Source of the DNA: a virus
Taxonomy: Duplodnaviria; Caudoviricetes
Reading direction: 5' to 3' (one strand)
IMG/VR virus record: IMGVR_UViG_3300032272_000024
Span: 1-47,323 of that record
DNA length: 47,323 bases
Of the stretch, positions 31,266 to 40,394 are shown piece after piece. A program made the translations under genes and the position numbers. Each line of letters begins with the position of its first letter. Position 1 is the first letter of the stretch. The notes beneath the pieces were generated by a model. It did not search any database. It saw only the letters and a list, made by a program, of their open reading frames with translations, and was not told the DNA's origin.

Positions 31266-32483
31266 TTGGCAAAAAGAAAGCAACAAGAAAACTCAAGCGG
31301 GCTACTCGATATAGTAGTTGATATTGGCAATAGCCTATGGAAAGTAATGATCCAAGGTAGACCCTCAACAGCTTGCGTATTCCCCCATTCGATTAAGTAT
31401 ATCAGTGAGCGCAAATTTGCAAGCGAGGGCAAACGTTTTGAAAAGGGGTATCAGGAATTACATGATATTGATTTTGGGACGTTCGCATATCGGTATAAAG
31501 TAAAGGGTGGTTGGGATACTGCTTATGTTTCAGCTGGTAGCACTGCGGAGAATAAAGAAACTGAGGGTATCAAAGTAGGTGCTGAGAAATACATTCGCCA
31601 ATATTATGGTGTTGCCCTCACTTATCTTTTGTTGCAAATGTTCCCAGATGGGTGTGATAACCCAATTCGGTTAACAGTCGGACATCCAGCTAGTGATATT
31701 GAATATCGTGATGCGATGATTGATAGTGTAATTGGGAACCATTTCGTAAAATTATTAAATGGTGAAAAGATTAAGTTTGTAATCAAGTCTGTGATTCCTT
31801 ACGAAGAAGGTGTAGCAGCAGGTCGTAATTTTGTTTACACACGCGATGGGATCCATTACCGCCAAATGTCACAGCAGTTTAATGAGGGGCTTGGTTTGGA
31901 TATTAACATCGGTGGCGGTATCTCATCAGTAACGCCATACAGCCCACAAACTGGTTGGGTTGATTATGGCAATAGCACGTCTATTGGTTCTGGGATCAAT
32001 GACATAATGAAAAGTATTGGTTCTGATATTTTGCAAGAGTACGCTCAGTCATTCACAGATAACAAGGATGGCAATCTCGCGCTAGATGCGCGTATGCGTA
32101 TGACTGTGAAAACGGGGAAGTATTGGCAGAATGGGTATAATTTGGATGTGGCACACATTGTAAAGGATAGCACTCGTGTATTTCGTAACAACCTGAGAAC
32201 AGCCATTATAACGGCAGGCGGTGTTGGTCGTTTTCGGTTCATTACTATTTCCGGTGGTGGCGGTGGTTATATGTGGAAGTCTTTAATGGATAACGATACT
32301 TTGAATTTTAACCCTGATTTTATATTTCCTGCGTTGGATAGCGACGGTGTAGTTAAAGAAGATTTAGAACACATGATGCTAGAAGAAATGCACTACAGCG
32401 TTTTGTTTGGCGCAGATAAAACAACATCTGCAAAAATATATAAGATAAGTCAGGAATCAAAACCGAAACGGCGCAGACGGTAA
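31266..32483 (+). CDS. parM: Actin-like ATPase, ParM/StbA (Alp) family
   Basis: Phosphate-1 VDIGNSLWK, LTVGHP, connect-1 YEEGVAA, phosphate-2 INIGGGISS, adenosine ISGGGG; AAGGAGG RBS. Confidence 0.8.
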   Translation: MAKRKQQENSSGLLDIVVDIGNSLWKVMIQGRPSTACVFPHSIKYISERKFASEGKRFEKGYQELHDIDFGTFAYRYKVKGGWDTAYVSAGSTAENKETEGIKVGAEKYIRQYYGVALTYLLLQMFPDGCDNPIRLTVGHPASDIEYRDAMIDSVIGNHFVKLLNGEKIKFVIKSVIPYEEGVAAGRNFVYTRDGIHYRQMSQQFNEGLGLDINIGGGISSVTPYSPQTGWVDYGNSTSIGSGINDIMKSIGSDILQEYAQSFTDNKDGNLALDARMRMTVKTGKYWQNGYNLDVAHIVKDSTRVFRNNLRTAIITAGGVGRFRFITISGGGGGYMWKSLMDNDTLNFNPDFIFPALDSDGVVKEDLEHMMLEEMHYSVLFGADKTTSAKIYKISQESKPKRRRR

Positions 32484-32938
32484 TGAAAAAACAAAAAAGT
32501 GATATTCGATTAATACAAGCGAAGCTGAATCGCAACAAGAAACGGGAGGCTGATTTAGTCTCTCTAATCGAAAAGTGGGAAAGCACCAAAAACCCAAAAA
32601 ACCCAGACGATCATGAGTTTACTCAAAAAGATGTAATTATGATGGCACTGGAGGAATGGTCTGAAACAGTCCCCGAGTATCCACCTAATAGCGAATATAT
32701 ATTTTCGCTACTGAATGAGTTTCATTGCGAAATACAAAAGACTATAAAAGAATCTCACGATGTTTTGATGCAAGCATTACTGGGGTTAGATTTAACAACA
32801 TATGTAAACACTGAAACGGGGCGCAGTATGCACGATGAAGTAGGTGGGTTGTTAGTCGATGAAGAAACATTAAACAATCTTACAAGTGAACCAACCATAG
32901 AATACGATGGCAATAGTGATGAGCCTGATGGATGGTAA
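32483..32938 (+). CDS. Putative partition adaptor (ParR-like)
   Basis: TAATG-coupled to the actin; basic strand-helix-helix N-terminus and acidic C-terminal tail. Confidence 0.6.
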   Translation: MKKQKSDIRLIQAKLNRNKKREADLVSLIEKWESTKNPKNPDDHEFTQKDVIMMALEEWSETVPEYPPNSEYIFSLLNEFHCEIQKTIKESHDVLMQALLGLDLTTYVNTETGRSMHDEVGGLLVDEETLNNLTSEPTIEYDGNSDEPDGW

Positions 32939-36666: not shown

Positions 36667-36963
36667 TTAACACGCGCCAGTGTTCGCGCACACGTCATTA
36701 ATAACCTGTTGCGATTGTGCCAAGTAGGGCGCGATGATTAGCGCATAGCACAGCACACTTGATATGAATAACAACATAGCAACGTAAAGCCACACATGAT
36801 TGCTCTTGCGTGGTTTTTGTTTTTGCAAAATCGCATCAACTTTGTATAGCCACTTATCGGCAATCGGGTGTTCAGTAATTAACAGCACCTTACGCGCTTG
36901 TGTGTATCGCTTTTTTTCGATTAGCTTACGTGCCCTCATTAACTGTTGGCGAGTGATTGACAT
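36667..36963 (-). CDS. Single-pass membrane protein (moron), Anaerolineae-like N-terminal motif
   Basis: ARKLIEKKRYTQARKVL...HPIADKWL then TM helix; own RBS and TGcTATACT. Confidence 0.65.
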   Translation of the reverse strand: MSITRQQLMRARKLIEKKRYTQARKVLLITEHPIADKWLYKVDAILQKQKPRKSNHVWLYVAMLLFISSVLCYALIIAPYLAQSQQVINDVCANTGAC

Positions 36964-37014: not shown

Positions 37015-37578
37015 ATGGCGTTAGCTGACACTGCGGTTGCGACGTGGGTAAACATCGACACCCTTAAATATTGGGATGGTAATTATAATCACGGCAATAT
37101 CGGTGCGGTTATGTCTAGTATTGAGGCTTTTGGTTTCCTCAATGCACCACGATTATGGCAAGACAACATAGTCATGGCTGGCAATCACGCTTTAAATAGC
37201 GTTCGCCAATTGGTCAAGGGCGGGTGGGAGCCATACGGCGGTGCGATACGTGTTAACGGTGATGCCATCGAGTTACTTACAGTTGATATGTCCTATTTAA
37301 CGTATGAGCAAGCTAAAGCGTTTGCCGTCGCAGACAATCGCACCGCTAGCCTAGCAGAGCCTGACGAATACGCGCTAGTCGAGTTATTGCAGGAGTTTGC
37401 CAATAGTGAAGACGATAGCCTGTTAAATGCAAGCGGGTACGATGGTGATGATCTTGACGCGATGTTGAGTGATTTAGGGTTCTCACCCGTTAGTATAAGT
37501 GAACAGCCATCATTAGACTTGTTAACACCGCTTATATGCCCACATTGTGGTAAGGACACACGAATTGACAACAGTTAA
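37015..37578 (+). CDS. ParB/Srx-like N-terminal domain protein with C-terminal CPHC
   Basis: SIEAFGF, IVMAGNH, AFAVADNRTA, GYDGDDLD motifs. Confidence 0.8.
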   Translation: MALADTAVATWVNIDTLKYWDGNYNHGNIGAVMSSIEAFGFLNAPRLWQDNIVMAGNHALNSVRQLVKGGWEPYGGAIRVNGDAIELLTVDMSYLTYEQAKAFAVADNRTASLAEPDEYALVELLQEFANSEDDSLLNASGYDGDDLDAMLSDLGFSPVSISEQPSLDLLTPLICPHCGKDTRIDNS

Positions 37579-38197
37579 ACTAGTGGTTGATTATTGTTCA
37601 TATCAAGCAAGCAAGTATGCTGTAACGCATTGGCATTATAGTAAATCAATGCCAGCAGGTAAGGTTGTGAAGTGCGGAGTGTGGGAATGTGGGTTATTTG
37701 TTGGTGTGGTTCTATTTTCTAGGGGCGCAAATCAAAATATTGGTAAGGCATATGGGTTAAGTCAGACGGGTGTCTGTGAGCTGTCACGAGTCGCTTTGTC
37801 GAAACATATTGCACCCGTAAGTCAAATCATCAAGCATTCAATAAAGTTATTGAAGAAAAAATCACCTGCAATGAGACTTATTGTAAGTTATGCAGACTTA
37901 GATCAATCACATACTGGGCTTGTGTATCAGGCAGGTAATTGGGCTTATGTAGGGAAAGTGCAACAAAACGGAGGCACACCTCGATACAAAGTGAACGGAA
38001 AAGTATTGCATGGCAGACAAGTACATTCACTCTGGGGCAAGGGCACACAAAATATTGATTGGTTGCGGAAGCACAAAGACCCTAAAGCAGAACTTGTTCT
38101 TACAAAAGGTAAATACAAGTATTTGTATCCATTAGATCGTGCTATGAGAAAACAAATAATGCCATTAGAACAGCAGTACCCGAGGCAAGAGATATAA
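37565..38197 (+). CDS. mom: Mom-family adenine-modifying GNAT-fold acyltransferase
   Basis: HWHYS, GVWE..FVGVVLF, ELSRVAL, IVSYAD...HTG.VYQAGNW.Y.G, KYKYLYPL; TTG 37565 with AAGGA RBS. Confidence 0.85.
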   Translation: MTTVKLVVDYCSYQASKYAVTHWHYSKSMPAGKVVKCGVWECGLFVGVVLFSRGANQNIGKAYGLSQTGVCELSRVALSKHIAPVSQIIKHSIKLLKKKSPAMRLIVSYADLDQSHTGLVYQAGNWAYVGKVQQNGGTPRYKVNGKVLHGRQVHSLWGKGTQNIDWLRKHKDPKAELVLTKGKYKYLYPLDRAMRKQIMPLEQQYPRQEI

Positions 38198-38202
38198 CAC
38201 AT

Positions 38203-38271
38203 GCGAGTACCTAGAGGTAGTATCTGCATAACCATATGCAGGGGTGGCGGTTCAATCCCGACCTACTCGCT
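38203..38271 (+). tRNA. Non-canonical tRNA-like RNA with tRNA-Gly identity elements
   Basis: Perfect 7-bp acceptor GCGAGTA/TACTCGC plus T discriminator; T-loop TTCAATC on a 5-bp stem with bulged A; CTGCATA-ACCA-TATGCAG arm; reduced D arm; no encoded CCA. Confidence 0.7.
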
Positions 38272-38290
38272 TAAGCAATAAAGGTAATCA

Positions 38291-38932
38291 ATGACTAAAA
38301 AAGCGCACCTATGGGAACGTCAGAAAACGGATACAGACAAATCGTATTCGGCTTTTTGCGTGTACCGTGATATGGGGCGTGATAGGTCAATTAGGGGTGT
38401 CGGACGAGAGTTAGGTAAAAGTAAGGCGTTAATTGATAGGTGGTCGTCTAAACATGATTGGGTGAACCGTGTAAACGCCTACGATGATTACTTAGAGGCA
38501 CAACAGCGCAACGCCTATGAAACCAGCGTAACCGATGCGAAGGCTAAACACGTCGCGGGGATGGTTAAGCGTGTATCGAAATTATATGAACAGTGGGACA
38601 CCGCCTATGAGCATTCTAAATTGCTGGCAGTTAAGCGCACGATAGAACGCGATGGTAAGACAATCGAAATCACCGCGCTAGACACTGACGACCAGCACCG
38701 CTTCGCAAAGTGGCTAGCGGACATTGACAGCCTAGCGCGTCGCCAGTATGAGATGCCTGATAGGTATACGCACCAAAAGCAGGATGTTGAAATTAAAGAC
38801 TGGCGTTCGGAAGCTGTCCAAGATATACGCGCTGGCACAATAAGTTACAGCGATTTAGCGACAGCCTTTGATGTTGATTTAGCGCAAGAATTATTTAAAC
38901 AAGCGGGCGTACCGATTGAACAATCTACCTGA
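38291..38932 (+). CDS. terS: Terminase small subunit
   Basis: WERQ..T.KSY.AF..YRDMG..RSI HTH, RWSSKHDWVNRV.AYD; directly upstream of terL. Confidence 0.8.
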   Translation: MTKKAHLWERQKTDTDKSYSAFCVYRDMGRDRSIRGVGRELGKSKALIDRWSSKHDWVNRVNAYDDYLEAQQRNAYETSVTDAKAKHVAGMVKRVSKLYEQWDTAYEHSKLLAVKRTIERDGKTIEITALDTDDQHRFAKWLADIDSLARRQYEMPDRYTHQKQDVEIKDWRSEAVQDIRAGTISYSDLATAFDVDLAQELFKQAGVPIEQST

Positions 38933-40394
38933 TTACTTGATACCACATGCTAATGAGTACCGCTATAACACGCGGGTCAAGAATAAACCACATACCCGCG
39001 CTGACTATGCACAGCACATGCAGATCATTAATAAGCGGGGGGAGTTGGTTCACTTCGAGCCGAACCGCGTCCAATCTACGTATATGGCTAATCGCGGACA
39101 AAAGAATTTAGCACTCAAGGCTAGACAGCAGGGTCTATCATCGGTAGTGGTGTGGGACGGCACACTTGAGGCAATGACACAAACGAGTTTCCAAGCGGTA
39201 TTGGCGCACGATAGTGTGACGACTGAAAAGATGAGGTCACTATCGCGTTTTTATTACGATTCGTTGCCAGCGCATATGAAGCCAAAGCGAACACGCGATA
39301 ACGCGACCAAAACCACGTATGCACATACTAGCAGTGAAGTAACGATAGTCACGGCAGGGAGTGCCAATACGGGGCGTGGTGGTACATATCATCGTATACA
39401 TGGTAGTGAGGTAGCCTACTGGAAAGATGCACCCGCAATCATCGCGGGGCTAATGCAGGGGTTAACGCCTGATGGGAGTGTCGATTTTGAAGGCACTGCA
39501 AACGGGGCGCAGGGCTGGTTTTACGATCAATGTATGCGGGCTATGGACGGTGACACAGAATGGACATTCCATTTTTTCCCGTGGTACTGGATGCAAGAGT
39601 ATGCCACGCCACTGACCGACGATGAGAAAGCAACATTCACCTTAAGCACATCCGGCAGTAGTGTAACGCTATCGGAACATGAGTTAGTTCACGAAAAAGG
39701 GTTAAGCCTAGAGCAAATTAAATGGCGACGTGCCAAAAAGCGCGAACTCCCATTCACATTTGAGCAAGAGTACCCAGAGACAGCAATGCAAGCGTTTATA
39801 TCTGGCGGGCAATCCGTATTCGGGGATATACGCCACGCGGTTAAGTGGATAGGTGCTAGGCAAGGTGTACCAACTGCAAAGCACCGTTATGTAGCTGGTA
39901 TTGATTGGGGTCAAGATAATGATTACACCGCAATATCTGTTATGGACGCAACCACAAATGAAGAGGTACACATTAGCCACTTCAACAAAATGCCGTGGGG
40001 CGAGATGAGATCAATCATCGCAGACATCTGTATCCATTGGGGCGTTGAAACAGTTCAACCCGAACGAAACAATATGAGCGCAAATATTGAAGAACTTAAA
40101 AAATTATTTAATAACAAGGGATTTAGAACTAATACCAGAAGTGTGGACACCAACAACTCCAAAAAAAGTAAGTGGGTTCATAACTTGTATAAGGCGTTGC
40201 ATGATGAAGGGTTGCGCTTGTTAGACCCCGAAGATAACACGGGTGTGAGATACGCCACACATGAATTAAACGCATTCATTCAGACACAGTTGCCGTCCGG
40301 TGTTTACAAGTACGGCGCGATGAATGGGAAGCATGACGATACGGTAATGGCGCGTATGTTGGCATTAGACGCGGTTAATAGGATGGTTTGGTAA
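38916..40394 (+). CDS. terL: Terminase large subunit
   Basis: LKARQQGLS Walker A, GRGGT...HGSEVAYW, EGTANG, GIDWG, HDDTVMA. Confidence 0.92.
   Translation: MNNLPDYLIPHANEYRYNTRVKNKPHTRADYAQHMQIINKRGELVHFEPNRVQSTYMANRGQKNLALKARQQGLSSVVVWDGTLEAMTQTSFQAVLAHDSVTTEKMRSLSRFYYDSLPAHMKPKRTRDNATKTTYAHTSSEVTIVTAGSANTGRGGTYHRIHGSEVAYWKDAPAIIAGLMQGLTPDGSVDFEGTANGAQGWFYDQCMRAMDGDTEWTFHFFPWYWMQEYATPLTDDEKATFTLSTSGSSVTLSEHELVHEKGLSLEQIKWRRAKKRELPFTFEQEYPETAMQAFISGGQSVFGDIRHAVKWIGARQGVPTAKHRYVAGIDWGQDNDYTAISVMDATTNEEVHISHFNKMPWGEMRSIIADICIHWGVETVQPERNNMSANIEELKKLFNNKGFRTNTRSVDTNNSKKSKWVHNLYKALHDEGLRLLDPEDNTGVRYATHELNAFIQTQLPSGVYKYGAMNGKHDDTVMARMLALDAVNRMVW

Follow-up and report, generated by a model that had tools for sequence, protein, structure and literature searches.

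The Mom protein of phage Mu moves glycine from Gly-tRNA-Gly onto the N6 of adenine, and, in the part of the report consulted (Silva et al. 2026, PMC13219725), it is described as accepting all three E. coli Gly isoacceptors and refusing mischarged Gly-tRNA-Ala, its authors supposing that the acceptor end is what the enzyme reads. The use of Gly-tRNA-Gly as donor by Mom, on which the original prediction leaned, is thus correct for Mu Mom. In the ssrA islands of Dehalococcoides, a conserved 76-bp tRNA-Gly-like 'pseudo-tRNA' with the anticodon DCC lies in a mom homolog belonging to a parB-mom module (McMurdie et al. 2011, PMC3146451). The locus, described for 16 islands as well as one fosmid, occupies the 5' part of mom, and the sections of the article available to us propose no function for it. 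Non-ribosomal use of glycyl-tRNA is described in staphylococci, where the tRNA-Gly species NP1, NP2 and NEW act as donors for Fem transferases (PMC4052509, PMC4574755, PMC9976931, consulted in part). The 49-65 and 51-63 pairs, which tune EF-Tu binding, are altered in these cell-wall tRNA-Gly (PMC4052509, PMC4574755), and the bacterial GlyRS identity set comprises G1-C72, C2-G71, U73, C35 and C36 (PMC9976931).

The window, i.e., the whole stretch of DNA analysed here, is the 47,323-base Caudoviricetes virus record IMGVR_UViG_3300032272_000024 (positions 1 to 47,323). It carries a mom gene followed by a tRNA-Gly-like RNA in the following block:

37015..37578, + strand: ParB-like N-terminal-domain protein of 187 aa (PHROG 620, E 2.4e-18)
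37565..38197, + strand: Mom-family GNAT DNA aminoacyltransferase (PF25680, E 6e-44)
38203..38271, + strand: tRNA-Gly-like RNA of the short-D class, 69 nt long up to discriminator U73, CCA not encoded (sequence; model R1, 37.3 bits)
38291..38932, + strand: terminase small subunit, terS (PHROG 6299, E 2e-22)
38916..40394, + strand: terminase large subunit, terL (PHROG 2, E 4e-25)
from 40398, after terL: portal gene (PF04860)

The profile matches leave the predicted order ParB-like gene, mom, RNA, terS, terL standing. The stop of the ParB-like gene overlaps the start of mom, which we place at the TTG at 37565, preceded by TAAGGA, within a longest open reading frame that opens at the GTG at 37547; a tblastn search with the ParB-like protein gave matches in 68 of the 101 related mom loci. 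Five nucleotides separate the mom stop (38197) from the RNA (38203), and terS has its own ribosome-binding-like AAAGGT at 38280-38285. A scan for promoters and terminators returned three promoter-like sites, where 4.8 were expected, and none at the RNA. Among the sequencing runs listed for the stretch, none is of RNA; the one DNA run covers the stretch with zero differing letters, and is possibly the window's own source, hence not independent. The suggestion that the gene order couples modification to packaging held in part: of 42 sampled loci (every second one of 83), 26 have a terminase subunit gene as the next gene, but phages Martha and Appa and the Dehalococcoides islands have mom and the RNA elsewhere. 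Shared late transcription is the simpler reading, and physical coupling of mom and the RNA to packaging was rejected as unsupported. Further upstream, at 31266-32938, an actin-like protein (E 1.3e-6 to Pfam ALP_N) and, behind it, a 151-aa open reading frame possibly form a plasmid-type segregation pair, and a 98-aa open reading frame with a hydrophobic stretch lies on the minus strand at 36667-36963, just before the parB-mom block.

The predicted 69-nt cloverleaf is present in the sequence at 38203-38271, with the following parts:

38203-38209 / 38264-38270, + strand: acceptor stem of 7 bp (GCGAGTA/TACTCGC), its 5' strand starting G1, C2, G3
38211-38220, + strand: mini D hairpin CTA-GAGG-TAG
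38224-38241, + strand: anticodon arm of 7 bp with an ACCA loop, or of 5 bp with an 8-nt loop (pair probabilities 0.84-1.0)
38246-38263, + strand: T arm GGCGG-TTCAATC-CCG(A)CC, with a bulge that is common in relatives and pairs backed by covariation, weakly predicted in the window copy alone

The ACC anticodon occupies 38231-38233, the variable region reads GGGT, the discriminator is U38271, and A38261 is unpaired in the T stem, between tRNA positions 63 and 64. Folding of this copy is more stable than expected (z = -2.79; among 200 shuffled sequences, 3 were equally stable), and the acceptor pairs have probabilities of about 1.0 (pairs 1-5), 0.6 (pair 6) and 0.1 (pair 7). The cloverleaf, present in the sequence and supported by the family, is however not the minimum-energy fold (-22.5 against -26.4 kcal/mol, a difference of 3.9 kcal/mol); the latter pairs the variable GGGT with ACCU of the 3' strand of the T stem. 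The pairing probability of the family T arm is about 0.02 in the window copy compared with a mean of about 0.6 in 67 relatives, which counts against the donor function proposed below; it is therefore the family, not the energetics of the single copy, that supports this T arm.

As had been anticipated, ARAGORN at default settings does not call the RNA in the window, and neither does Rfam, the RF00005 gathering score being passed at 1 of 10 relative loci. ARAGORN with -ps80 does report it, among 19 mostly spurious calls, and the relaxed mode is too noisy for counting (19 and 132 calls). The covariance model R1, built without the window, gives the RNA 37.3 bits as its sole match in 47 kb; since ordinary tRNA-Gly reaches 61 bits with the same model, R1 is not specific to Mom-linked RNAs, and specificity therefore rests on motif comparison and position. 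For the bulged-arm motif, the window has a single match and 100 shuffles gave none. With C8, a mini D hairpin, an anticodon loop of 4 or 8 nt and a bulged T stem, the RNA departs from canonical elongator tRNA-Gly. It is a tRNA-Gly look-alike, and belongs to a Mom-linked family that is real, specific and widespread.

Comparison of relatives revealed covariation in all four stems. In alignment A3 (38 full-length motif-picked copies, aligned without structure, the T arm being fixed by the search motif), acceptor pairs are formed in 100% of cases and 170 double changes were counted, compared with 53 after shuffling. Alignment A5 (98 model-aligned matches from 100 chosen loci, mostly positives), which leans towards its own structure, yielded 564 against 140, and its covariation includes four of the five T-stem pairs. 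In these tests, 0 of 500 shuffles reached the observed values and slid controls were low; pair counts were not taken from the plain alignment A2, in which the short forms are misplaced.

Features were then compared between 85 Mom-linked RNAs (collapsed at 90%, after three rows, namely two other tRNAs and one partial, had been dropped) and 50 control tRNA-Gly. U8 and U33 are near-universal in tRNAs, and tRNA-Gly(ACC) is rare in bacteria. U8 is present in 7 of 85 Mom-linked RNAs versus 46 of 50 controls, U33 in 34 of 85 versus 44 of 48, A34 (anticodon ACC) in 38 of 85 versus 0 of 48, and a D region of at most 15 nt in 37 of 85 versus 2 of 50. The T loop opens with TTC in 25 of 85, and CCA is encoded in 55, the other 30 including three rows that end at the discriminator. 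The T stem carries a bulge in 69 of 85, and the bulged base is always A. That the stem is unbulged in 16 of 85, and that the bulged form keeps three G-C/C-G pairs, both count against the donor function.

The GlyRS identity elements are retained, as predicted: G1-C72, C2-G71, U73, C35 and C36 are all found in the window RNA, which lacks C50-G64 and G10, also read by T. thermophilus GlyRS. Among motif-picked relatives, whose acceptor identities are partly fixed by the search descriptor, the centre of the anticodon loop, not fixed by the motif, is CC in 80 of 81, GG in 0 of 81 and AA in 16. Given that Mu Mom tolerates all Gly isoacceptors and supposedly reads the acceptor end, the conserved C35-C36 points to GlyRS.

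Linkage to Mom was assessed from both directions. Starting from the RNA, the strict motif (bulged T arm plus acceptor end) occurs in about 1500 IMG/VR stretches, by the estimate of the search tool. A Mom gene was found at 75 of 80 bulged-motif viral loci with full flanks, compared with 1 of 80 canonical tRNA-Gly loci, a control in which the Gly acceptor end is identical but the T arm regular, the T loop and acceptor end being fixed by its pattern. The Mom profile behind the figure of 75 was built from those loci, and the independent profile A1 gives 73 of 80; all 43 of the 43 weak Mom neighbours score above Pfam's Mom cut-off. Of the five loci counted as lacking Mom, three are truncated at most 121 nt upstream, one (L048) has its Mom about 1.3 kb off, and L088, a fragment estimated as 54% complete, has the RNA and no Mom, which counts against the donor function. 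The same holds for the complete genome of phage P8625 (NC_029047), in which the RNA is present and Mom was not detected. There the RNA (L491:1477-1552) shows a C-C mismatch in the T stem, lies inside a 64-aa open reading frame and comes after a ParB-methyltransferase gene and ahead of the genes that precede terL; it may be a relic left after gene replacement, or the partner of an unrecognised transferase. At L291, the sole control locus with Mom, the protein groups with that of Mu, and the tRNA-Gly that comes after it has a regular T stem. At L048:1564-2934, a group-1 glycosyltransferase-like gene sits between Mom and the RNA, a hint of a further DNA-modifying step.

Starting from the protein, 145 loci were picked by Mom alone (19 and 80 from IMG/VR, 46 from GTDB). 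A scan of the 450 nt downstream with a structural descriptor gave a Gly-type cloverleaf at 113 of them, against 9 of 1818 background windows; the breakdown is 95 bulged, 18 unbulged, 30 with none and 2 truncated. After collapse at 85% Mom identity and addition of covariance-model matches, the RNA lies within 450 nt at 91 of 101 loci, so that the comparative test set beforehand, a conserved equivalent with covariation and bulge beside other mom genes, gave a positive answer. The remaining ten comprise three with a match elsewhere in the locus, one variant without U73 and six with none. In metagenome loci, whose contigs partly overlap the earlier set, the RNA was found in 34 of 41, the seven misses ending inside mom or at most 20 nt past the match. 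In a set of 13 loci from annotated phages, the RNA is present in three, B2_17, Martha and Appa (where it is unbulged and on the opposite strand), and missing from ten. No RNA was detected in Mu or in any of the 19 Mu-type loci searched (of 45), nor at six of the 101 loci and in phiEf11, whose Mom proteins are clade-mates of those with the RNA; both absences count against the donor function. At least three deep Mom groups contain the RNA; in two of them it sits at the 3' end of mom, in the third within the 5' end of the gene. The FastTree tree supports the presence of the RNA in several deep groups, but with long branches and some 'none' labels due to descriptor misses, gains and losses cannot be counted from it.

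An ordinary tRNA-Gly supplementing translation, an attachment-site remnant or a decayed pseudogene hitch-hiking with mom would explain why ARAGORN or annotators label some copies tRNA-Gly (7 of 19 loci; B2_17) and why P8625 has the RNA in the absence of Mom. Compensatory changes in every stem, the constant bulge and the fact that U8, U33 and TΨC are systematically lost argue against both decay and decoding, as do the position of the RNA between mom and the terminase genes and the single canonical viral tRNA-Gly that adjoins Mom among 80. In five host genomes, moreover, the model has other matches away from mom, presumably the normal tRNA-Gly. At the level of sequence, covariation and specificity thus contradict and largely refute this reading, which we hold to be very improbable.

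How the RNA relates to the mom reading frame raises another possibility. The arrangement in the window is atypical: the mom stop precedes the RNA in just 5 of 83 relatives, and in the other 78 the mom frame overlaps it. This frame is free of stops across the RNA in 66 of 78, compared with 39 and 30 for the other two frames (p 2e-9), and where mom reads through the RNA, the start of the next gene falls between -8 and +10 nt from the mom stop in 50 of 63 cases. A tRNA mimic acting in cis within the mom mRNA, bound by Mom or GlyRS or cut by RNase P, could tune the synthesis of Mom rather than serve as a donor. Both the frame and the tight junction with the next gene fit this idea, and excision would take away the stop of mom, or its start in the 5'-embedded group. 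The read-through is nevertheless accounted for by translational coupling to the next gene: Mu Mom terminates at YPK, about where most family RNAs begin, and, with the next gene starting at the mom stop, the read-through tail is therefore probably a translational-coupling spacer. Free-standing copies also speak against a cis element, namely those of the window, of L005 (about 260 nt away), of L048 and the unbulged opposite-strand copy in Appa; furthermore, the CCA encoded in 55 of 85 and the constant C35-C36 suit charging of a free RNA. We consider a purely cis-acting role unlikely. Cis and donor roles could coexist, and the cutting of the mom message upon excision of the RNA would support a possible cis role alongside that of donor.

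The enzyme itself is a member of the Mom family (PF25680, 150.6 bits against a curated cut-off of 27.1) and is related to Mu Mom (PDB 8bv8; E 8e-10, hhalign probability 98.6). Its residues H24, Y25, R75, S86, D111 and Y121 align with H58, Y59, R111, S124, D149 and Y159 of Mu Mom, i.e., six of the eight residues needed in Mu, and the C-terminal YP(K/R) is shared as well. The other two are not kept, Mu R151 being replaced by D113 and Mu W48 by Q14; the missing essential R151 counts against the donor function. The two systems also differ in that Mu draws on host isoacceptors, such an RNA being absent from it, and in that a ParB-like gene replaces the com regulator gene of Mu here.

Taking these data together, we regard it as likely that the RNA is a dedicated non-ribosomal glycyl donor for Mom and not a codon reader. 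RNase P and CCA addition form the maturation route of tRNAs. The RNA would be co-transcribed late with parB, mom, terS and terL, and be freed by host RNase P, 3' trimming and, for copies such as that of the window, which has no CCA, the CCA-adding enzyme. Charging by host GlyRS is predicted from the identity elements G1-C72, C2-G71, U73 and C35-C36. The bulged A, beside the 50-64 and 51-63 pairs, together with the loss of U8, U33 and the elbow and the short D arm, is predicted to keep the RNA off EF-Tu and the ribosome. By homology with Mu, for which these steps are described, Mom would place the glycyl group on adenine N6 of double-stranded DNA, and the glycylated adenine would rearrange to N6-carbamoylmethyl-adenine, progeny DNA being thereby shielded from nucleases. 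The RNA would probably boost supply rather than be strictly required.

Alternatively, the RNA could act as a Mom-binding decoy or antitoxin which, by sequestering Mom or competing for GlyRS, limits host-DNA modification or the drain on Gly-tRNA until late infection. The tight linkage between Mom and the RNA also fits a decoy, as does the retention of the acceptor branch with loss of the elbow. Yet an inhibitor has no need for C35-C36, which the isoacceptor tolerance of Mu Mom suggests Mom ignores, and a charged Gly-acceptor RNA is chemically the substrate of Mom. These points make a decoy improbable in our view, and the donor function remains our preferred reading.

Compared with the staphylococcal cell-wall tRNA-Gly, as described in the sections of those papers available to us, the Mom-linked RNAs likewise retain Gly identity and often lose G18-G19 and U55-C56, and in both cases escape from EF-Tu and feeding of a GNAT-fold transferase are proposed. 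The staphylococcal species are, however, chromosomal, UCC-only and full cloverleaves, with A49-U65 and A51-U63 weakening EF-Tu binding, whereas the Mom-linked RNAs are encoded by mobile elements, carry a bulged A and any N34, are often D-arm-reduced, usually lie inside the enzyme gene and would serve DNA. The window RNA has G49-C65 (G49-C65 is present in 79 of 85 relatives), C51-G63 and ACC, and is thus not a member of that group, though proposed to work alike. An unpaired T-stem A is also found in 8/4 tRNA-Sec and in selC* tRNA-Cys with its bulge A51a (PMC5389517, PMC7609411, in the parts consulted); those RNAs serve translation, and their unpaired base belongs to the 5' strand of a 4-bp stem next to an 8-bp acceptor, while Mom-linked RNAs have a 7/5 branch with the bulge on its 3' strand. 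The literature examined, much of it in part, holds no tested precedent for EF-Tu exclusion by such a T-stem bulge, which counts against the donor function.

With the Dehalococcoides locus, the window shares the tRNA-Gly-like fold, the anticodon type (ACC) and the parB-mom context, and both RNAs probably belong to the same family, the likeness being drawn from the published description (PMC3146451, consulted in part). The window RNA differs in being free-standing 3' of mom, without CCA and with a short D arm, and the family extends over the phages and prophages of many phyla. In the portions of the literature examined, including PMC5389517, PMC7609411 and PMC7824862, no paper ties such RNAs to the donor of Mom or describes this bulge, and the words 'tRNA-like' and 'neighborhood' are absent from the main text of PMC13219725; its supplement and the wider literature may bear on novelty. 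The co-location itself was already in print in 2011 for the Dehalococcoides islands.

More tentatively, with slightly less than even confidence, we propose that Mom and the RNA constitute a self-contained two-part DNA-hypermodification module across many phages and prophages. One transcript would give both the enzyme and an orthogonal aminoacyl carrier, usually inside its codons; the T-stem bulge would represent a new EF-Tu antideterminant, the family would include natural D-arm-reduced bacterial tRNAs, and excision of the carrier would inactivate the mom message, balancing both products. If the donor reading is true, the oddity of 2011, a 'pseudo-tRNA' inside mom, would be explained by the finding of 2026 that Mom consumes Gly-tRNA. 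How tRNA-dependent transferases win aminoacyl-tRNA from EF-Tu is raised as an open question in the part of PMC4052509 consulted; in the present system, the carrier would be supplied by the virus itself. The family offers many natural variants for mapping the minimal recognition by GlyRS and Mom, and cultured phages with the RNA (Salinibacter B2_17, Arthrobacter Martha) make the donor idea directly testable. Many copies are missed by tRNA callers or annotated as protein tails.

Several individual loci depart from the common pattern. In Microbacterium phage Appa (L394:2127-2201), an annotated tRNA-Gly(CCC) with an unbulged T stem lies just past mom on the opposite strand. At L201, mom is directly followed by a cloverleaf-like sequence with Gly acceptor pairs and a C discriminator, possibly decayed or of altered identity. 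Mom genes without the RNA form a small tree group (L244, L148 and L391, the latter being phiEf11), with members from a Leptotrichia genome and an Enterococcus phage. Two different Mom genes lie close by at L045, L061, L076, L196, L210, L211 and L263, where a single RNA often separates or follows the two. Lastly, at the locus whose mom is nearest to that of the window in the tree, a tmRNA gene (L140:644-1002) is located about 1.5 kb upstream of mom, which recalls the ssrA-integrated islands of Dehalococcoides.
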